A stretch of DNA of 64,000 bases from Planctomycetota bacterium (GTDB lineage Bacteria > Planctomycetota > B15-G4), in contig JBBQUR010000016.1 in assembly GCA_038212275.1 (NCBI GenBank), positions 32,001-96,000 of the forward strand. Direction: 5' to 3'. Position 1 is the first letter of the stretch. The number at the start of each line of letters is the position of its first letter. Shown piece after piece: positions 813 to 32,231 of this stretch. A model generated the notes under the pieces. That model saw nothing but the letters and a program-made list of their open reading frames with translations. It had not been told where the DNA came from and did not search any database. Both the position numbers and the translations under genes were made by a program.

Positions 813-1462
813 GCAGCCCATCCCAGCCCGCCATGCCTGGCCGTGCGGCCCATGAAGGGCCCGAATCGACCTCGGCGCCGGTCAACGGCGGCCCGCTGCT
901 GCGCGTGGTGGACACACCCCGCATCGAGGCTGCCGTGCGCGAGATCCTGCAGGCCGTGGGGGAGGACCCGGACCGCGACGGCCTGCTGGGCACGCCCAAT
1001 CGGGTGGCCCGGATGTACGCCGAGATCCTGTCGGGGAACGAGGTGGACCCGGCGCGGCATCTGGCCGTGACCTTCGCCGAAGACCACCACGAAATGGTGC
1101 TGGTGAAGGACATTCCCTTCGAGTCGCTGTGCGAGCACCACATGATGCCGTTCCACGGCCGCGCGCATGTGGCCTACGTGCCGCAGGGCCGAATCGTCGG
1201 GCTGTCCAAGATTGCCCGCGTGGTGGAGGAGTACGCCCGGCGGCTCCAGGTGCAGGAGCGCCTGACCTCGCAGATCGCGGACCTCATCATGAACACGCTG
1301 GAGGCGCACGGTGTGGGCGTGGTGCTTGAGGCCACCCACACCTGCATGTCGATGCGGGGCATCCGCAAGCCGGGCGCCGTGATGGTGACCTCTGCCCTCC
1401 GCGGCACGTTCCGCAGCTGCCCCGAGACCCGCTCCGAGTTCATGAACATCATCAAGAGCTGA
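809..1462 (+). CDS. folE: GTP cyclohydrolase I
   Basis: GEDPDRDGLLGTPNRVA, SLCEHHMMPF, GLSKIAR, RLQVQERLT, HTCMSMRG; ATGA overlap with the upstream gene. Confidence 0.97.
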   Translation: MSSPSQPAMPGRAAHEGPESTSAPVNGGPLLRVVDTPRIEAAVREILQAVGEDPDRDGLLGTPNRVARMYAEILSGNEVDPARHLAVTFAEDHHEMVLVKDIPFESLCEHHMMPFHGRAHVAYVPQGRIVGLSKIARVVEEYARRLQVQERLTSQIADLIMNTLEAHGVGVVLEATHTCMSMRGIRKPGAVMVTSALRGTFRSCPETRSEFMNIIKS

Positions 1463-1591
1463 GCGACCGCCCGGGCCGGCGCGGGGCTGCCGCCGAGAGC
1501 CCGGAAGAATAATGCCTGCCCCGATGAGTTGCTGGAGACTCCAGCCGAGCTCAAGGTGATGACGCGCCGCGAGGTTGCTCGACGCACTTTC

Positions 1592-1654
1592 GCGAGCCTC
1601 GTTTCAGGCTCTGCGAGCATCGCTTCAGACTCTGCGAGCCTCGTTTCAGACACA
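1592..1654. repeat. 3 x 21-bp imperfect tandem repeat
   Basis: gcgagcctcgtttcaggctct / gcgagcatcgcttcagactct / gcgagcctcgtttcagacaca. Confidence 0.85.
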
Positions 1655-1703
1655 GGGCGGCACCGAAAGGCGCTGACTCTCGTGCATCCCGGCGCCTGGA
1701 GTG

Positions 1704-1739
1704 CCGGCGCCCCGACCGGCGCCCCGACCGGCGCCCCGA
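1704..1739. repeat. 3 x 12-bp perfect tandem repeat (ccggcgccccga)
   Basis: Read directly from the sequence. Confidence 0.9.
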
Positions 1740-1997
1740 TCGGGACCGGGGCCAGCTTCCCGGGACTGGCCGGTTCACCGCGACCAGAAAAACAGTTTGG
1801 GGCGCAACCTAGCCCGATGTCGGAAACCCGCCTATACTCCGCACGCGAAGCCAATTCGCTCCCCAACTGTCCTTGGCAGCTCGACTGGTCCCCGAAACCA
1901 GTCAGGCGACCCCGAACCATGCCAATGGCAGCGCGAAATGGCTTTCCGACGTGTGCGCCCGCTCTCCCTGCGTTCTCTCCCCTCCCGGAGTCCGCTG

Positions 1998-2549
1998 ATG
2001 AAATTCCCTCGTGCGGCACTGGTAGTGGCCGGACTTGCGCTGGTCACGGTTCCGCTTTTCGCAGCGGTGAAAGCGATGACGCTTTCCGAGCTCATGGAGC
2101 TCACCCAGGACACGGCCCTTGTGCACATCGTCGACAAGACGACCTTCACTTCGGACCTTCCGTTCGAGGGCGCCGTCTTCACGCGCCTCACCGTCAAGGG
2201 TGAGTCGCTGCGCACGGGGGACGAGGTCTCCACCCAGATCATCTTCCTGGGAAGCCACGATCCCGCAGACCACTTCGCGAGCAGCGAAATGCCGACGCTG
2301 CAGGACACGCGTGTCGGCGGCGACGCGATCCTGTTCCTGTACAGGGACGCCACGATGCCCGGCACGCCGTTCCGCGTGTCGAGCCACGCCGACGTGTATC
2401 GCGTGGAGCGCGCCTTCGGCACCGACGTCGTGATCGGCAAGGGCGAGGGCGCGGCGTTCACGGAAAACGTGCCGCTCGTCGTGGCGCGTGACCGCGTCCG
2501 CCAGACGGACGTCGCGCAGCGCGCCGCCAAGTCGCAGGCCGGAAAGTAG
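1998..2549 (+). CDS. Small secreted protein (183 aa), matrixin partner copy 1
   Basis: GGAG RBS, ATG 1998, signal peptide MKFPRAALVVAGLALVTVPLFA; paralog of 4559..5110 (KAMTL, FLGSHD, SEMPTxQDTRVGGDA, VVIGKGEG). Confidence 0.85.
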   Translation: MKFPRAALVVAGLALVTVPLFAAVKAMTLSELMELTQDTALVHIVDKTTFTSDLPFEGAVFTRLTVKGESLRTGDEVSTQIIFLGSHDPADHFASSEMPTLQDTRVGGDAILFLYRDATMPGTPFRVSSHADVYRVERAFGTDVVIGKGEGAAFTENVPLVVARDRVRQTDVAQRAAKSQAGK

Positions 2550-2556
2550 GGCTGCC

Positions 2557-4437
2557 ATGAAACTCGACACCCGCAATCTGCTGGCGATCGGTGGCCTTGC
2601 CGCGACGGCGCTCGTGGTGGCTGCCTTCTCGCTCCCGACGAGCACGGCCGCGTTCGCCACGCTCGGCGGCAGCCTCGGCACCGGTCAGCGCGACTTCCGC
2701 GTGTTCAACAACTTCTCCGACTCGACCGCGAACAACAACGTCACGCCGCACGTGAACTTCCCGGGACAGACCGGCGCCGTGATGGCCATCTGGAAGGCCG
2801 AGTCCGAGTGGGCCAGCGAGCCCGTCGGCGGCAACGGACTCGGAGACGGCATCTCCGGCAACCCGATCCTGGGCAGCGGCAACGCGAACTTCGACACGAT
2901 CTTCCAGGGAACGGCGACGTCGGCGGGCAACAGCAACGCCAACATCCACTCGGAGCTGACGGGCAGCGACGGCGGAGTGCTCGCCTTCACGCTGTCGCCG
3001 ATCAGCGATGGCTGGACCATCAAGTACTACTCGACGTGGACCTGGCAGGACGGCCCCGGCTCCGTGAGCTCGGGCATCGACATCCAGGGCGTGGCCTGCC
3101 ACGAGATCGGCCACTCGCTCGGGCTTGACCACTCCAATGCGTCGGGCACGCCGACGATGACGGCTTTCATCAGCGGCACAGGCACGAGCCAGCGTTCGAT
3201 CGAGTCCGACGACATCGCCGGACTCCAGTCGATCTATGGTGTGAAGTCGGCCGGCAAGCCGCACATCTCGTCGATTTCCGGCACCAAGCAGATCGGCCAG
3301 CCGCTCACGATCACCGGCACCAACTTCGCCGCGACCGGCGGCGAGGTCTGGTTCACCAAGTTGAACAGCGACGGCGCTCCCGCAAAAGTGACGAACGTCT
3401 CGTCCACCGGCGGCGGCACGTCGATCACCGTCACGATTCCGAACGGCGTGCAGGACGGAGAGGTGATGGTGAAGAACAACACCGACACCGACTCCAGCCT
3501 CTCGAATGCCTTCCCGATCGACACGAACGCCGCGAGCGGCAATCCGCCCAACGTCTTCAGCATCAGCCCGGGCTTCGGCTTCGCGGGCGGTTTCTCCACA
3601 GTGGCGATCACGGGTGTCGGTTTCACGGGCACCACGAGCGTGAAGTTCAACGACGCGGATGCGCTGGATTTCACCGTGAACAGCGACACGCTGATCACCG
3701 CGACGGCTCCGGGCGGACCGCTGTTCGGCCTTGCCGACGTCACGGTCACCGATGGTGACGGCGCCGCCACGCTGGCTTCGGCCTACTTCTTTACCTTCGA
3801 CCCGCTGGCGTCGATCTCCTCGGTCACGCCGAACTTCGGTCCGACCGCGGGCGGCACGCAGGTCTCGATCACCGGCACCTCCGTGATCGGCGTCACGAGC
3901 GTCACCTTCGGCGGCGTGCCGGGCACGCAGCTCGACGTGGTCAGCTCCACCGAGCTCACCGTGTTCACGCCGGCTGGCGTCGCAGGTCCCGTGGACGTGG
4001 TCGCGATCGCATCCAACCCTGCGACGATCGTCGCCGGCTTCTCGTACATGGATGAAGGCCTGTTCACCGTCTTCGGGACGGGCGTGCCGGGCCTCTCGGC
4101 GACGGCGCCGCAGCTCAACGGTGCGGGCGACCTCACGCCGGGCAGCGGCACGGGCTTCATGCTGTTGACCAGTGGCGCGGCTCCTCTCGCGCCGGCCGCC
4201 CTGTTCGTCAGCCTCGTGCAGGGCAACGTGCCCTTCAAGGGCGGCACGATCTACACCTTCCCGATCCTGCTGGACATCAGCCTGATCACCAGCGCCTCCG
4301 GCACCATCAGCTTGCCCGCCCAGATTCCGGCGGGCACCCCGACGGCAACGAATTTCTTCCTGCAATGCTGGGTGCAGGATGCCGGCGCCGTGCACGGCAT
4401 CGCATCCACGAACGGCCTTCAGGTGACCACGCCTTGA
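2557..4437 (+). CDS. Secreted matrixin (M10/MMP-like) metalloprotease with IPT/TIG repeats and shared C-terminal module, copy 1
   Basis: Signal peptide; HEIGHSLGLDH zinc motif; Met-turn (PTM); DDIAGLQSIYG helix; three IPT/TIG-like repeats (e.g. SVTPNFGPTAGGTQVSITGT). Confidence 0.9.
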   Translation: MKLDTRNLLAIGGLAATALVVAAFSLPTSTAAFATLGGSLGTGQRDFRVFNNFSDSTANNNVTPHVNFPGQTGAVMAIWKAESEWASEPVGGNGLGDGISGNPILGSGNANFDTIFQGTATSAGNSNANIHSELTGSDGGVLAFTLSPISDGWTIKYYSTWTWQDGPGSVSSGIDIQGVACHEIGHSLGLDHSNASGTPTMTAFISGTGTSQRSIESDDIAGLQSIYGVKSAGKPHISSISGTKQIGQPLTITGTNFAATGGEVWFTKLNSDGAPAKVTNVSSTGGGTSITVTIPNGVQDGEVMVKNNTDTDSSLSNAFPIDTNAASGNPPNVFSISPGFGFAGGFSTVAITGVGFTGTTSVKFNDADALDFTVNSDTLITATAPGGPLFGLADVTVTDGDGAATLASAYFFTFDPLASISSVTPNFGPTAGGTQVSITGTSVIGVTSVTFGGVPGTQLDVVSSTELTVFTPAGVAGPVDVVAIASNPATIVAGFSYMDEGLFTVFGTGVPGLSATAPQLNGAGDLTPGSGTGFMLLTSGAAPLAPAALFVSLVQGNVPFKGGTIYTFPILLDISLITSASGTISLPAQIPAGTPTATNFFLQCWVQDAGAVHGIASTNGLQVTTP

Positions 4438-4558
4438 TCGGCCGACTGCGGAATTGCCGAACGGTTGGCGCGTTCGACAAGACCGTGCTCTCCCTCTCCC
4501 CCTCAGTTCCGCCAATCCCGACTTCTCTTCCTCAATTTCGTATCCACGGAGATCATCC

Positions 4559-5110
4559 ATGAAAATTCTCAAGGCCGCGGCCGTGCTGCTTGGCGTAGCG
4601 CTCGTCGCGATTCCCGCAGGTGCCGCCATCAAGGCGATGACCCTGGCGGAGGCGATGGAGATCAACTCCGACGTCCTGCACGGTCGCATCATGTCCAAGA
4701 CGACGGTGAAGACCGACAGGCCGCTCGAGGGCATGGTCTACACGCACATCACCGTGGAGGGCGAGTCGCTCACCACGGGCGAGAAGGTCACCAAGGAGCT
4801 CGTGTTCCTCGGCAGCCACGACACGAAGGACAACTACGGCACGAGCGAGATGCCCACGCAGCAGGACACGCGCGTCGGCGGCGATGCCCTCATCATGTAC
4901 TCGCATGACGAGTCCGGCGCCACGCCGGTGGATCGCGTCTCCGATTTCTCGGCGGTCTATCGCGTCGAGCTCGCCTTCGGCGAGCCCGTCGTCATCGGCA
5001 AGGGCGAGGGCTTCGCCTTCCCCGAGAACGTGAAGCTCGCCGAGGCCCGCACGCGGGTCCTCAAGGCTCACGCTGACATCATGGCTGCCAAGACCAAGGC
5101 CGGAAAGTAA
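4559..5110 (+). CDS. Small secreted protein (183 aa), matrixin partner copy 2
   Basis: GGAG RBS, ATG 4559, signal peptide MKILKAAAVLLGVALVAIPAGA; paralog of 1998..2549. Confidence 0.85.
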   Translation: MKILKAAAVLLGVALVAIPAGAAIKAMTLAEAMEINSDVLHGRIMSKTTVKTDRPLEGMVYTHITVEGESLTTGEKVTKELVFLGSHDTKDNYGTSEMPTQQDTRVGGDALIMYSHDESGATPVDRVSDFSAVYRVELAFGEPVVIGKGEGFAFPENVKLAEARTRVLKAHADIMAAKTKAGK

Positions 5111-5118
5111 AGGAACAC

Positions 5119-6993
5119 ATGAAGACCATCACACAGACTCTTCTCGCAGCTGGCAGCCTCGCTGCAGTGGCCGCAGTGCTTGGCGCGCTGTCGCTCCCCA
5201 CGAGTACGGCGGCTTTCACCGTCATCGGCGGCAGCCTCGGCACCGGCCAGCGCGACTTCCGCGTCTGGAACAATTTCACGGACACGCAGGCGAACAACAA
5301 CACGTCGCCTCACGTGAATTTCCCGGGCCAGACCGGCGCCGTCATGGCGATCTGGAAGGGCGCGGCCGAGTGGGCCAGCCAGCCTGTTGGCGGCACCGGC
5401 ACGGGTGACACGGGCGGCAGCAATCCCGTGATCGGAAGCGGCGGCGCCAACCTGGATCTCAACTTCCAGGGGCTCGCCTCGAGCGCCGGATCCACCAACC
5501 AGAACATCCACTCCGAGCTGTCAGGCAGCAGCGGTGGCGTCCTCGCGTTCACCGAGACGCCCATCAGCGACGGCTGGAGAATCCTCTACTACTCGTCGTG
5601 GACCTGGCAGGACGGTCCCGGCAGCGTGGGCTCGGGCATCGACCTGCAGGGCGTGGCCTGCCACGAGATCGGCCACTCCACGGGACTCGGCCACTCGAAC
5701 ACCGGGGGCGCGACGATGTTCGCATCCATCAGCGGCACGGGTGTCGGTCAGCGCTCGATCGAGGCGGACGACATCGCGGGCGTGCAGTCGATCTACGGTG
5801 TGAAGTCGGCCTCGAAGCCGACGATCACCTCGATTGCCGGCGACAAGAACATCGGCGCCAACCTGATCATCAACGGCACCAACTTCTCCGCGACCGGCGG
5901 CGAGGTCTGGTTCACCAGGACGGCCGCCGACGGCACTCCGGTGAAGGTCACGGGAGTGGCTTCCACGGGCGGCGGCACGCAGATCACGGTCACCATCCCG
6001 TCGGGGGTGATGGACGGCGAGGTCATGGTGAAGACGAGCGGGAGCGGCAACACCAGCCTCTCGAATGCCTTCCCGATCGATCTCGGCGCGCCGGCCGGCG
6101 ATCCGCCGAACGTGAGCTCGATCGTCCCGAACGTGGGTTCGATGGGCGGCTTCACGTCTGTCCAGATCCTCGGGACGGGCTTCACGGGCACGACGGCCGT
6201 GAAGTTCGACGGCGTGGATGCGATCTCGTTCACGGTAGACAGCAACGTCCAGATCTCGGCGGTCACGCCGCCTGGCACGCTGTTCGCCGCGGCGGACGTG
6301 CTCGTCGTCGATGGGGAGGGCAGCTCAACCCTTCCCACGGCGTTCATCTACACGTTCAACCCGCAGATTTCCGTCTCGACGGTGCTTCCGAACAGCGGTG
6401 CGCTCACGGGCGGCACGGAAGTCACGATCAGCGGGACCTCGGTGGTCGGCGCCAACACCGTCACGTTTGACGGCGTGCCCGGCATCAACGTGGAGGTCAT
6501 CAGTGCGACGAGCCTGACGGTCACGACCCCGGCGGGCCTCGCGGGTCCGGCGGACGTGGTCGTCAGCGGGAGCAGCATGTCGACGATCGTCGGCGGCTTC
6601 ACCTACGTCAACTTCGGAACCTTCACGGACGTCGGTCCGGGTTTCGGAAGCATCATCGGAGCACCCAGCATGACCGGCGCAGGCGATCTGACGCCCGGCA
6701 GCGGGACGGGCTTCACGCTGACCACGACGAACACCTTCCCGTTCTCGTTGGCGGCGACGTTCGTGAGCCTCAACCTGAGTGCCGTGCCCTTCAAGGGCGG
6801 CACGTTCTATCCGTTGCCGATCCTGCTCCAGATCGACCTCGTCACGGATTCGTCCGGCACGATCGTCCTGCCGGGGCAGATCCCGGTGGGCGTGCCGTCG
6901 GGCGCGAACGTGTACATGCAGACCCTGGTTTCGGACTTCCTCGCGCCCAAGGGCCTGAGTGGAAGCAATGCGCTGAGGCTCACGACGCCGTGA
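5119..6993 (+). CDS. Secreted matrixin metalloprotease with IPT/TIG repeats and shared C-terminal module, copy 2
   Basis: AAGGA RBS; HEIGHSTGLGH; ATM Met-turn; DDIAGVQSIYG; collinear with 2557..4437. Confidence 0.9.
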   Translation: MKTITQTLLAAGSLAAVAAVLGALSLPTSTAAFTVIGGSLGTGQRDFRVWNNFTDTQANNNTSPHVNFPGQTGAVMAIWKGAAEWASQPVGGTGTGDTGGSNPVIGSGGANLDLNFQGLASSAGSTNQNIHSELSGSSGGVLAFTETPISDGWRILYYSSWTWQDGPGSVGSGIDLQGVACHEIGHSTGLGHSNTGGATMFASISGTGVGQRSIEADDIAGVQSIYGVKSASKPTITSIAGDKNIGANLIINGTNFSATGGEVWFTRTAADGTPVKVTGVASTGGGTQITVTIPSGVMDGEVMVKTSGSGNTSLSNAFPIDLGAPAGDPPNVSSIVPNVGSMGGFTSVQILGTGFTGTTAVKFDGVDAISFTVDSNVQISAVTPPGTLFAAADVLVVDGEGSSTLPTAFIYTFNPQISVSTVLPNSGALTGGTEVTISGTSVVGANTVTFDGVPGINVEVISATSLTVTTPAGLAGPADVVVSGSSMSTIVGGFTYVNFGTFTDVGPGFGSIIGAPSMTGAGDLTPGSGTGFTLTTTNTFPFSLAATFVSLNLSAVPFKGGTFYPLPILLQIDLVTDSSGTIVLPGQIPVGVPSGANVYMQTLVSDFLAPKGLSGSNALRLTTP

Positions 6994-7047
6994 TGGCGTC
7001 GTGATCCGGGAGTCCCGCGCGCCCCGGGCGCGTCGGACTGCCAGTGG

Positions 7048-7085
7048 GCGAGGCCCGTCCTTCCTGAGGGAAGGGCGGGCCTCGC
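7048..7085 (+). terminator. Terminator-like hairpin after the matrixin cluster
   Basis: gcgaggcccgtccttcc-tgag-ggaagggcgggcctcgc: 17-bp stem with one G-U pair and a 4-nt loop; no U-tract. Confidence 0.6.
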
Positions 7086-7285
7086 TCCATGTCGGGGCTC
7101 GTCGCGGCACATGCACGGGGCTACGCACGGGACACGCACGTCGTGCGCCGGACATCGGCGCACGCAGCGCCCGGTGAAGTGCTTGCGCGCCCCTTGCTGC
7201 ACGCACGCAGCAGGCCTGCCGCCTTGCACGGGAAGTGCCAATCCCTATAGTGCCGGCTGCGTCCGGACCCCGCGCGGAGAACTCC

Positions 7286-7681
7286 GTGTTCCTGAGCTAC
7301 CACGCCGTTCTCGTGTTCCTGATCACGGGCATGGCCATGGTGTGTACGCCGATGATTCTCGGCGTGCTCTTCCGCCCGCGGAATCCCTACCCGGCGAAGA
7401 CCATGGCCTACGAATGCGCCGAGGATCCGGTGGGCGACGCCCAGATCCGCTTCGACATGCGCTTCTACTCGGCCGCGCTGATTTTCATCATTTTTGACGT
7501 GGAAATCGCCTTCATGTTCCCTTGGGCGCTTGTCTTCCAAGGCTTCCATGACCGCTGGCTGGCACTCGCGGAAGGGGTGGCGTTCATCGCGATCCTCTTC
7601 CTCGGCCTGGTCTACGTCTGGGTCAAGGGCGACGTGGACTGGGTCAAGACCTTCCGCCACCGTCGACGGGTGCAGGGCTGA
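7286..7681 (+). CDS. nuoA: NADH-quinone oxidoreductase subunit A
   Basis: KTMAYECAEDP, FYSAALIFIIFDVEIAFMFPW; GTG start after GGAGA; TATAGT at 7246. Confidence 0.93.
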   Translation: MFLSYHAVLVFLITGMAMVCTPMILGVLFRPRNPYPAKTMAYECAEDPVGDAQIRFDMRFYSAALIFIIFDVEIAFMFPWALVFQGFHDRWLALAEGVAFIAILFLGLVYVWVKGDVDWVKTFRHRRRVQG

Positions 7682-30461: not shown

Positions 30462-32231
30462 ATGTCCGTCGTCCCGCCCGCCGCTTCCGCAGAACACCCG
30501 GCGTCCGGCGGATCCGATGAGCCCTCGAGTGGATCAGGCGCCTCCGGTGCTGCGGGCGCTGCCGAGGCCGCTGGCGCCGCCGGGGCGCCCGTGAAGCACG
30601 CGCCCGCCGACGAGAAACACTTCCTTCACTCCGCGTGGACGGTGTCCGCGCTCACGATGCTGTCGCGCGTGCTGGGGCTCGTGCGCGACCAGATCACGGG
30701 CGCTCTGCTCGGCGCCGGAGCAGTCAACGACGCGCTGATCTGGGCGTGGTCCATCCCGAACATGTTCCGGCGGCTCTTCGGCGAGGGCGCGCTGTCGTCG
30801 GCCTTCGTGCCGATCTACTCGCGCGTGCTCGAGAAAGAGGGCGTGGCGCGCGCGCGCCAGGTCAGCAACCAGGTCATCTCGTCGCTTGCGATCTTCCTCA
30901 CCGTGCTCGCGGCGGCCATGGCGCTGATCACGCTGCTGATGCCGCCGCAATGGCTGGCGGACTGGACCGGCAAGGATCTCGCCAAGGCCGAGCTCATGCT
31001 GCGCTACACGGCGCTGCTCACGCCGTATCTCGCCTTCATCTGCGTCATCGCGCAATTCATGGGCGTGATGAATGCGATGGGCGAGTTCGCCATCCCCGCG
31101 ATCGCATCCGTGATCCTCAACCTGATGTGGGTCGCCGGCGTCATTGCCGCCGCGTGGCTGATGGGCACGACGGCGAGCACGCCCGAAGCGCTCGAGGCGC
31201 TCAACGCGCGACAGGGTTACGTCATCGCCAGCGCGATCCTGATCTCCGGCCTGCTGCAGTTCCTGTGGCACCTGCCGGGACTGAAGCGGCTCGGCGTGGG
31301 CTTCGCCTTCACGCTGCCGCGTCGCACTGCGGAGCTCAAGGCCGTGCTCGCGTCCACGGGACCGATGCTCATCGGCATGGGCGCCGTGCAGCTCAACATC
31401 CTGATCGATCGCGCCGTCGCCGAAGGCTTCCTCTCGGACGGAGCCGTCACGCACCTCTACTACGGCCAGCGGATCATGCAGTTCCCGCAGGGTCTGGTGT
31501 CGGCTGCGCTGGTGTCCGCGGTGTTCCCGGCGCTGGCGCGCATGTCCTTGCGCGGCGACGGGAAGAGCGTCGTGGCCACCACCAGCCTGGCCATCCGCGT
31601 GAACTCGCTTCTCACGCTGCCGGCGGCCATCGGCTTCATCGTGCTGGCCGCGCCGATCGTGGCCCTGCTCTTCGAGCACGGCCACTTCGATGCCTCGGCC
31701 TCCGCGCTGACGGGGCGAGCCCTCATCGGCTTCTCGCTGGGCATCCCGTTCGCCGGCATGAACATGCTGCTGGCCCGCGCCTTCTACGCCCACGGCGACG
31801 TGCGCACGCCGATGCGCATCGGGTTGTTGGCCGTCGCGGTCAACGTCTTGCTCGATTTCGCGCTTGTCGGGCCGTTCGCGGAGCTGGGCCTCGCGCTGGC
31901 AACCTCGGTGGCGACGGCCGTCAATTCGTGGATGCTGCTCACGGCCTTCCGCGCGCGGATGAGGCTGCCGCGCGAGGAGCGCCTGCTCTCGGGCCTGGCT
32001 CCCGCACTCGGTCTCACGGCGCTCATGGGCGTCGTCGTGTGGGGCGTCGACTTCGGTGTCGAGCGCGCGGTGGCTGCGGCGGACTGGCCGGCCGGCGGCC
32101 TGCTCACGCTGGGCGTGCGCTGCGGCGTCGGCATCGGCGCAGGCCTGGCCGTCTACCTCGGCCTCGCCAGCCGCCTCTGCCCGCAGGAATGGAACGAGCT
32201 CTCCCGCCTCTGGCGGCGCCGCCCCGCCTGA
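30462..32231 (+). CDS. murJ: Lipid II flippase MurJ (MviN)
   Basis: SRVLGLVRD, IPNMFRRLFGEGALSSAFVP, LYYGQRIMQFPQG, RAFYAHGDVRTP. Confidence 0.95.
   Translation: MSVVPPAASAEHPASGGSDEPSSGSGASGAAGAAEAAGAAGAPVKHAPADEKHFLHSAWTVSALTMLSRVLGLVRDQITGALLGAGAVNDALIWAWSIPNMFRRLFGEGALSSAFVPIYSRVLEKEGVARARQVSNQVISSLAIFLTVLAAAMALITLLMPPQWLADWTGKDLAKAELMLRYTALLTPYLAFICVIAQFMGVMNAMGEFAIPAIASVILNLMWVAGVIAAAWLMGTTASTPEALEALNARQGYVIASAILISGLLQFLWHLPGLKRLGVGFAFTLPRRTAELKAVLASTGPMLIGMGAVQLNILIDRAVAEGFLSDGAVTHLYYGQRIMQFPQGLVSAALVSAVFPALARMSLRGDGKSVVATTSLAIRVNSLLTLPAAIGFIVLAAPIVALLFEHGHFDASASALTGRALIGFSLGIPFAGMNMLLARAFYAHGDVRTPMRIGLLAVAVNVLLDFALVGPFAELGLALATSVATAVNSWMLLTAFRARMRLPREERLLSGLAPALGLTALMGVVVWGVDFGVERAVAAADWPAGGLLTLGVRCGVGIGAGLAVYLGLASRLCPQEWNELSRLWRRRPA

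Follow-up and report, generated by a model that had tools for sequence, protein, structure and literature searches.

A tandemly duplicated two-gene module was found at positions 1998-6993 of the stretch of DNA analysed here, hereafter designated as the window (64,000 nucleotides (nt) of a Planctomycetota bacterium; positions 32,001 to 96,000 of contig JBBQUR010000016.1, assembly GCA_038212275.1). In each copy, a gene encoding a small protein with an export leader, hereafter the partner, lies immediately upstream of a gene encoding a matrixin, a zinc endopeptidase resembling the matrix metalloproteinases (MMPs), which starts at its catalytic domain and has no recognizable prodomain. MMP-like enzymes are normally held latent by a built-in prodomain. 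Based on its linkage, predicted fold and association with propeptide-less proteases, the partner is probably a co-translated, disulfide-free latency factor or inhibitor of the neighbouring matrixin, with the predicted fold of TIMP, an animal protease inhibitor, a reading in which we infer both the binding and the inhibition. A whole bacterial phylum would thereby appear to replace the prodomain by a separately encoded, disulfide-free protein with a TIMP/NTR fold.

Duplication and genomic linkage of the pair

The features of the module are given below in window coordinates, with protein lengths in amino acids (aa).

1998-2549, plus strand: partner 1 (P0001, 183 aa), from its translation; leader at about residues 1-22
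2541-2559, plus strand: junction 1, read from the DNA letters as GGA AAG TAG, 7 nt, ATG
2557-4437, plus strand: matrixin 1 (P0002, 626 aa), from PF00413 and TIG matches and a structural model
3100-3132, plus strand: zinc-binding motif HEIGHSLGLDH of matrixin 1 (residues 182-192), from the translation, numbered from the ATG at 2557
4559-5110, plus strand: partner 2 (P0003, 183 aa), a paralogue of partner 1 by sequence comparison
5102-5121, plus strand: junction 2, GGA AAG TAA AGGAACAC ATG, with a gap of 8 nt and AAGGA just 5' of the matrixin 2 start
5119-6993, plus strand: matrixin 2 (P0004, 624 aa), with the architecture of matrixin 1, from Pfam matches and comparison with P0002
5662-5694, plus strand: zinc-binding motif HEIGHSTGLGH of matrixin 2 (residues 182-192), from the translation

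The two partners are identical at 97 of 183 residues (53%, E 2e-64) and the two matrixins at 381 of 602 (63%, E 0.0); with this degree of identity in both genes, sequence comparison identifies the pairs as a true tandem duplication and excludes chance. A first-pass annotation of the window, made from its letters alone, had described a pair occurring twice in tandem, partner first, with intergenic gaps of 7-8 nt, and the coordinates and identities agree with this description (7 nt in pair 1, 8 nt in pair 2). The motifs that it listed were all found as written in the four translations. Both partners are devoid of Cys, begin with a hydrophobic leader and carry [VI]KAMTL, FLGSHD and SEMPT[LQ]QDTRVGGDA, and both matrixins display PTSTAA followed by F, HEIGHS[LT]GL[DG]H at residues 182-192, a Met-turn (TM/ATM) and DDIAG[LV]QSIYG. 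At junction 1, the purine-rich GGAAAG formed by the last two sense codons of the partner (Gly-Lys) may be a putative ribosome-binding site for matrixin 1, and AAGGA may have the same role for matrixin 2 at junction 2. Partner proteins nearly always end in Lys and often in Gly-Lys, both in the window (2541-2549 and 5102-5110) and in family alignments. Because the GGA AAG codons form a purine-rich stretch just 5' of the matrixin start, this conserved C-terminus may reflect a ribosome-binding site rather than protein function.

Linkage between the two genes is nearly universal. Loci were fetched by partner similarity, and a linked open reading frame (ORF) was defined as one on the same strand with HExxHxx[GNCAS]xx[HD]. 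Over all fetched loci, 57 distinct partners were collected, 55 of which are followed at once by such a zincin ORF, one is fused to it and one is followed by a TPR protein. The proposal made in the first-pass annotation would have been refuted by homologues occurring mostly without matrixins, and these counts show the opposite; the neighbourhood survey also uncovered, in P0344, a rare example of the fusion for which it had suggested looking. A scan of genome contigs with a single-protein query returned no locus and an alignment query returned eight, all from public metagenome-assembled genomes; in these eight, every partner copy is directly 5' of a matrixin, and tandem duplication recurs in L004, L005 and L010. 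A phylum search recovered a matrixin catalytic domain directly downstream in 29 of 30 loci. The association extends to a more distant set of 21 partner ORFs (20 weaker partner matches plus one matrixin-less locus), where 18 downstream ORFs match the matrixin profile and two more are PF00413 proteins; the fused P0344 and the TPR-linked partner also come from this set.

The fused form P0344 (384 aa; L054:4039-5193, G026:C193) consists of a leader, a partner-like domain, a Gly-rich linker and a matrixin domain with Asp at the place of the third zinc ligand (HExxHxxxxxD). It was seen in only one of the 401 genomes of the phylum-wide search. The locus followed by a TPR protein (L060:3995-4546; G384:C39, the same place as L032) encodes a clear family member (E 2e-48) and, after it, a 957-aa TPR-repeat protein, with no matrixin. 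The C-terminal parts of the linked proteases vary considerably, including TIG, He_PIG with FG-GAP, CarboxypepD_reg, and CARDB with TIG; as linkage persists while these domains change, the partner is associated with the catalytic domain. Over the 55 pairs, partners average 26% pairwise identity and catalytic domains 40%, and in 94% of comparisons the partner has the lower value. Faster divergence of this kind would suit an inhibitor that follows changes in its target, but is not specific evidence for one. The spacing is tight, the matrixin start lying no more than 19 nt from the partner stop, or overlapping it, in 52 of the 55 pairs. A possible start codon overlaps the partner stop by 4 nt in 29 of them, although translation of some may in fact begin at an ATG slightly further downstream.

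Neither P0001 nor P0003 matches a known family in Pfam (at E up to 1) or NCBIfam. A word-indexed search detected 131 proteins at E 0.001 or better, and the 120 of these that were listed measure 177-200 aa and have no Pfam domain. A HMMER profile search of 1.84 billion representatives returned 104 clusters, nearly all of 170-200 aa and 54 of them at E 1e-10 or better. Every family member that could be named or located belongs to the Planctomycetota, and in the sample of 401 genomes of this phylum the partner-family profile matches 133 and PF00413 matches 223. Among proteins of 322-2000 aa, no fused longer relative of P0001 was detected, which is weak evidence. One 354-aa protein, P0268, carries a partner-like domain at its C-terminus (214-351), preceded by a secreted N-terminal part that is unrelated and lacks a Pfam match; the domain can accordingly occur without a free N-terminus of its own.

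Predicted partner fold and the missing prodomain

An AlphaFold model of partner 1 built on 48 relatives (predicted local distance difference test (pLDDT) 87.2, predicted template modelling score 0.79) consists of a leader helix, a short extended segment, a helix at 29-35, a beta barrel with strands at 38-52, 59-70, 76-84, 109-116, 133-139 and 142-145, and a long C-terminal helix at 160-181. The mature protein, about 160 aa in length and Cys-free, is predicted to be an NTR/TIMP-like OB barrel with flanking helices. An exhaustive VIA-align search of the model against 48,161 chains ranked three NTR modules first, agrin NtA (Z 9.9, 112 residues aligned at 2.9 A), PCOLCE NTR (Z 9.8) and N-TIMP-3 from its TACE complex (Z 8.9), and its top rows also included generic OB proteins such as Stn1 and RPA32 (Z 8.0-7.7), complement C345C (Z 7.8-7.2) and TIMP-1 (Z 7.2). 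When the top 999 chains of Foldseek were re-aligned, the first 13 rows were all NTR modules, and TIMP-1 and TIMP-2 reached Z 9.1-8.3 and 8.2, respectively. NTR/TIMP alignments cover 109-126 residues (Z 9.9-8.2). Best scores of 7-8 are common in VIA-align for models with no true match, and the NTR signal is a moderate one: its lead is only 1-2 Z, but the matches belong consistently to one family and span nearly the whole domain. As a lead only, language-model neighbours agree with this fold, the nearest named ESM-Atlas clusters being TIMP (0.92), agrin NtA (0.87) and nematode NTR/TIMP (0.85); the TIMP cluster is bacterial, and 19% of it carries the TIMP family. The TIMP-like OB fold suggested in the first-pass annotation is thus echoed by the top structural matches, at the level of a predicted model.

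Since no similarity exists at the sequence level, these matches may reflect homology to NTR/TIMP, and convergence on the OB scaffold is fully possible. True, though very remote, homology between the Cys-free family and the animal NTR/TIMP module seems quite doubtful. Given such homology, the pairing of an MMP with a TIMP-fold inhibitor would already be a bacterial operon, and both members could have reached early animals together, or travelled in the reverse direction. Animal-microbe gene transfer has been proposed for MMP genes alone, and the term TIMP does not occur in the portion of that paper available to us (PMC12587646).

Alignment of 157 distinct family members revealed Ala at position 22 in 137, Ile or Val at position 24 in 144 and Leu at position 29 in 148; the residue at position 23 varies (Ala in 85, Gln in 20, Ser in 15 and Cys in 14). 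The leader fits signal-peptidase cleavage after Ala 22 and, in the Cys variants, a lipobox with Cys at +1. The signal peptide reported in the first-pass annotation is present, but the alignment favours a cleavage site one residue before the one that it implied. Cys occurs at aligned positions 21-26 in 15 members, 14 times at position 23 and in 13 of these after a typical lipobox, as judged by eye, and 97 of the 157 have no Cys after the leader. About one family member in ten is a predicted lipoprotein, as the potempins are (see below), with examples in L020, L023, L028, L039 and L040. In almost every TIMP row, TIMP residue 4 is matched by residue 25 of the model, which places the predicted mature N-terminus (residue 23) at approximately TIMP residue 2.

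The most conserved stretch of the partner is the connector between strands 3 and 4, including G85 (157/157), S96 (125), P99 (153), D/E103 (126), R105 (111) and G107 (151). A GxGxG loop at 147-151 and N157 are also conserved. The GSHD motif, put forward in the first-pass annotation as a possible His/Asp zinc switch, was rejected in this role because the family does not conserve its His and Asp: of the motif, the Gly alone is invariant, with His87 found in 65 members and Asp88 in 55.

By sequence, P0002 and P0004 belong to the matrixins (peptidase family M10). PF00413 matches both with 50.6 bits (cut-off 24), over residues 138-228 only (profile positions 70-159), and a profile of 53 matrixin relatives matches solved chains of MMP-8, MMP-13, MMP-1, MMP-7, MMP-12 and karilysin (E 3.5e-13 to 1e-10). 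Within the HExxHxxGxxH, Met-turn and DDxxG (helix C) motifs, E183, H186, G189, H192, M201, D218 and D219 are invariant in these 53 sequences and H182 is present in at least 90%. With regard to the structural zinc and calcium sites of animal MMPs, H131 is the sole invariant His between strands 3 and 5. Near the N-terminus, Q44, R45, D46, R48, N51 and N52 are invariant in the 53 close relatives. After a leader (1-32), P0002 has its catalytic domain at about 33-232, followed by Ig-like IPT/TIG domains, three in number, at about 236-498, and it ends in a beta-sandwich with no assigned family (about 502-626); three IPT/TIG stretches were found in each matrixin, with a Pfam TIG score of 79 bits for P0002. 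In both enzymes, the C-terminal sandwich that comes after the TIG domains (about 125 residues; 4060-4434 and 6622-6990) is modelled with pLDDT above 90, has no Pfam match and displays conserved motifs, including FKGG and a final Pro; it may serve, for instance, in sorting, anchoring or substrate binding. A Foldseek search with the full-length matrixin model was dominated by Ig-domain proteins and did not resolve the catalytic domain.

The description of both matrixins as propeptide-less, made in the first-pass annotation, is borne out by three observations. Reading of the translations revealed the cysteine-switch motif PRCGxPD in neither enzyme. The AlphaFold model of P0002 (pLDDT 89.6) has a leader helix at 2-24, a low-confidence segment at 26-29, a first catalytic strand at 46-50, helix A at 73-83, four more strands, the zinc helix at 176-187 and helix C at 217-227. 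As catalytic strand 1 begins at residue 46, only 13 residues after the predicted mature F33, the model leaves matrixin 1 no space for a prodomain; in activated MMP-8, the N-terminus and strand 1 are separated by a comparable spacing. The third observation is that partner-linked matrixins in general have no long N-terminal extension. In 57 of 60 partner-linked rows, which represent the 55 distinct pairs, HExxH lies 125-164 residues beyond the point where the hydrophobic core of the leader ends; of the other three, one yielded 106, the heuristic having settled on an internal stretch, and for two no value was obtained. Cleavage sites were judged by eye and by family alignment, and the residue following the small-x-small motif is by eye F, Y or W in nearly all linked rows.

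For comparison, 20 M10 loci of the same phylum were taken away from known partner matches, a set reduced to 18 as one (L076) turned out to have a partner and another had no motif-fitting ORF. In nine of these 18 partner-less genes, leader and HExxH are separated by 171-662 residues, which in several cases include segments with Cys, and one gave no score. The remaining eight have 133-160 residues; they comprise a subfamily of lipoprotein type, an enzyme of minimal size (233 aa) and two orphans that belong to the partner-linked subfamily. The relation is one-way: a partner implies the absence of a propeptide, but the absence of a propeptide does not always imply a partner. The window's genome itself illustrates this, with exactly two partner copies for three PF00413 genes. 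Its third matrixin (G000:C9:178757-179020; locus L078, gene 2386-3801, minus strand) is of the same propeptide-less subfamily, measures about 450 aa with fewer Ig-like domains, and has a GDSL-like lipase rather than a partner as its upstream neighbour.

A probable latency factor or inhibitor and its alternatives

In the proposed mechanism, each module would be a two-gene operon whose first product, a small, Sec-exported and disulfide-free protein with an NTR/N-TIMP-like OB fold, would be made first and in step with the protease through the tight or overlapping junctions. The second product would be a Sec-exported MMP-like zinc endopeptidase starting at its catalytic domain, with an aromatic residue at the mature N-terminus and no prodomain, and would otherwise be active once folded after Sec export. 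By binding the catalytic domain in the periplasm, the partner would hold the protease latent until export or release and act as a prodomain supplied in trans, that is, as a cognate inhibitor. Contact would likely involve the barrel edge made up of the conserved start of the mature protein ([IV]xxxxL) and of the strand 3-4 connector (G85, S96, P99, D/E103, R105 and G107), which is topologically the edge used by N-TIMP. In TIMPs, the N-terminal segment and the strand C-D connector form a wedge that enters the MMP cleft, and the same two elements are the conserved ones in the partner. Strict TIMP-type chelation of zinc by the alpha-amino group is unlikely as a general mechanism, judging from the family members whose mature protein begins with a lipidated Cys or with Gln. 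An acidic connector residue acting on the zinc, as in aspartate-switch latency and in the Tannerella inhibitor PotA, may be an alternative. Complex predictions for partner 24-183 and catalytic domain 33-240, run with alignments, scored 0.81, 0.77 and 0.78, and one unrelated control scored 0.61, a difference smaller than the required margin; these model scores weigh neither for nor against binding.

Several observations weigh against the partner being a TIMP-fold inhibitor. None of 56 family members matches PF00965, PF01759 or PF03146 (TIMP, NTR and NtA) even at E up to 1, and the partner profile matches no PDB sequence beyond a chance-level row (E 1.7). A plain Foldseek search of the partner model against the PDB returned nothing at E 0.001 or better, the best match being PriB (3e-3). 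The OB fold is a common one, with Stn1 and RPA32 scoring only 1-2 Z below the NTR matches. At position 23, Cys (14/157, 13 of them in a lipobox) or Gln (20/157) would block the free alpha-amino group. On the protease side, the lack of a propeptide does not itself demand a partner, since eight of the 18 partner-less M10 genes are equally short, and matrixins of the propeptide-less subfamily with no partner of their own occur at G000:C9 and G146:C9, as a second matrixin in L006 and as one in L056. The orphan third matrixin in the window's genome argues against a strictly obligatory one-to-one pairing. The extra genes of L006 (4595-5680) and L056 (4967-6508) stand in tandem beside a partner-matrixin pair. 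Finally, contact between partner and protease and the block of activity are both inferred, and a role of the partner as substrate or effector is a live alternative, since the TIMP-like partner of a Listeria metzincin is cleaved by the protease and has effects of its own, according to the available text of PMC8235301.

Other roles would account for part of these data. The partner might be a non-inhibitory escort for folding or export, binding the nascent catalytic domain in the periplasm and leaving the active site unblocked. Linkage, coupling and fusion fit such an escort equally well, and the prodomains of other protease families do act as foldases; however, MMP catalytic domains fold without their prodomain, orphan matrixins of the same subfamily manage with no partner, and the matched fold is that of an inhibitor or binding module rather than of a known chaperone, all of which makes this role unlikely. 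It is also unlikely, to a similar degree, that the partner is a substrate or matured cargo of the protease, as in the Listeria pair, or a targeting subunit comparable to the NTR domain in PCPE or agrin. In favour of such a role, agrin NtA and PCOLCE NTR, which match the model best, serve as binding modules and not as inhibitors, the partner evolves faster than the protease, and the Listeria protein is cleaved by its metzincin and released, inhibition not being demonstrated there (PMC8235301, available text). Yet a substrate or targeting role leaves the uniform lack of a prodomain in linked proteases unexplained, and the partner-first gene order and the N-terminal position of the partner-like domain in the fused form are reminiscent of a prodomain. 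Both rivals fit the linkage as well as inhibition does, and account less well for the consistent absence of a prodomain.

A role independent of the protease, in an operon that the two genes merely share, would be in line with the G384 partner that precedes a TPR protein and with P0268, where the domain sits behind an unrelated N-terminal part. This seems very improbable for a family in which 55 linked and one fused partner were counted among 57, down to about 25% identity and across differing protease architectures.

Known counterparts and surroundings of the module

The closest published precedents are potempin A/karilysin, from the KLIKK-peptidase/potempin system of Tannerella forsythia, and Mtz-Tim of Listeria, the pair described here being a phylum-wide, disulfide-free version of the known co-encoded OB-fold partner of a bacterial MMP-like peptidase. 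Main texts of the literature, taken without supplements, yielded no description of the partner family or of a matrixin partner in Planctomycetota. Karilysin has a short propeptide of its own, in contrast to the window matrixins. In the available text of PMC9890683, potempins are small inhibitors encoded just upstream of their peptidases, and PotA is a 98-residue OB-fold outer-membrane lipoprotein that inhibits both the MMP-like karilysin and human MMP-12. Its mechanism is there termed 'bilobal' and involves the loops between strands 4 and 5, whereas TIMPs, also built on an OB scaffold, use their N-terminus (PMC9890683). The likeness lies in a small OB-fold protein directly upstream of an MMP-like M10 peptidase, co-transcription and specific inhibition being reported for the Tannerella pair (PMC9890683). 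In contrast to PotA, the window partners measure about 160 residues, have no Cys or lipobox and are predicted to carry extra NTR-type helices at both ends. PotA was not among the 50 rows shown of the fold lists, which does not exclude similarity.

With TIMP/NTR proteins, the partner shares a predicted OB barrel with flanking helices, secretion, pairing with an MMP-type protease and a mature N-terminus at about the TIMP position. It differs by the complete absence of Cys, TIMPs having Cys1-x-Cys3 and conserved disulfides (PMC9409782, available text), by the lack of a profile match to TIMP (PF00965, MEROPS I35) and by an N-terminus that is blocked in part of the family. Reviews, in the portions available, describe TIMPs as metazoan proteins. 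The available text of PMC8235301 reports in Listeria monocytogenes a secreted metzincin, Mtz, with an adjacent TIMP-like lipoprotein, Tim, identified by Phyre2 and cleaved by Mtz; its authors found no earlier record of bacterial TIMP-like proteins. Both systems combine a metzincin with an adjoining small protein that is TIMP-like by fold prediction, and Mtz-Tim is a conserved pair in numerous Firmicutes, a plain signal peptide being present in some of them (PMC8235301). They differ in that the Listeria pair has the protease first, is made up of phage-derived elements, belongs to another phylum, and includes a Tim that is cleaved and for which inhibition was not shown (PMC8235301).

The AprI/Inh proteins of Pseudomonas, Serratia and Erwinia, mentioned in PMC8235301, offer a further parallel, as periplasmic inhibitors co-encoded with a secreted M10-clan metzincin. 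Their fold is an eight-stranded barrel and not OB/NTR, and they were not seen in the fold lists shown for the partner model. These serralysin inhibitors act through their N-terminal segment.

If inhibition holds, the partner family would join potempin A as a second class of bacterial MMP inhibitors, one of different structure; it would also offer a Cys-free TIMP-like scaffold easy to produce and engineer, and would help to address whether MMPs and TIMPs became paired on a single occasion or on several. The tandem pairs and the orphan protease within one genome provide a natural test bed for inhibitor specificity.

The genes surrounding the module are unrelated to it, with a thioredoxin-like protein and GTP cyclohydrolase I upstream and NADH dehydrogenase subunits downstream. 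A promoter and terminator scan of positions 1400-7400 gave none above shuffled expectation. The 535-nt region that precedes partner 1 (1463-1997) contains two short tandem arrays, with a 21-nt unit repeated 2.9 times (1592-1651) and a 12-nt unit repeated 3.3 times (1704-1743).

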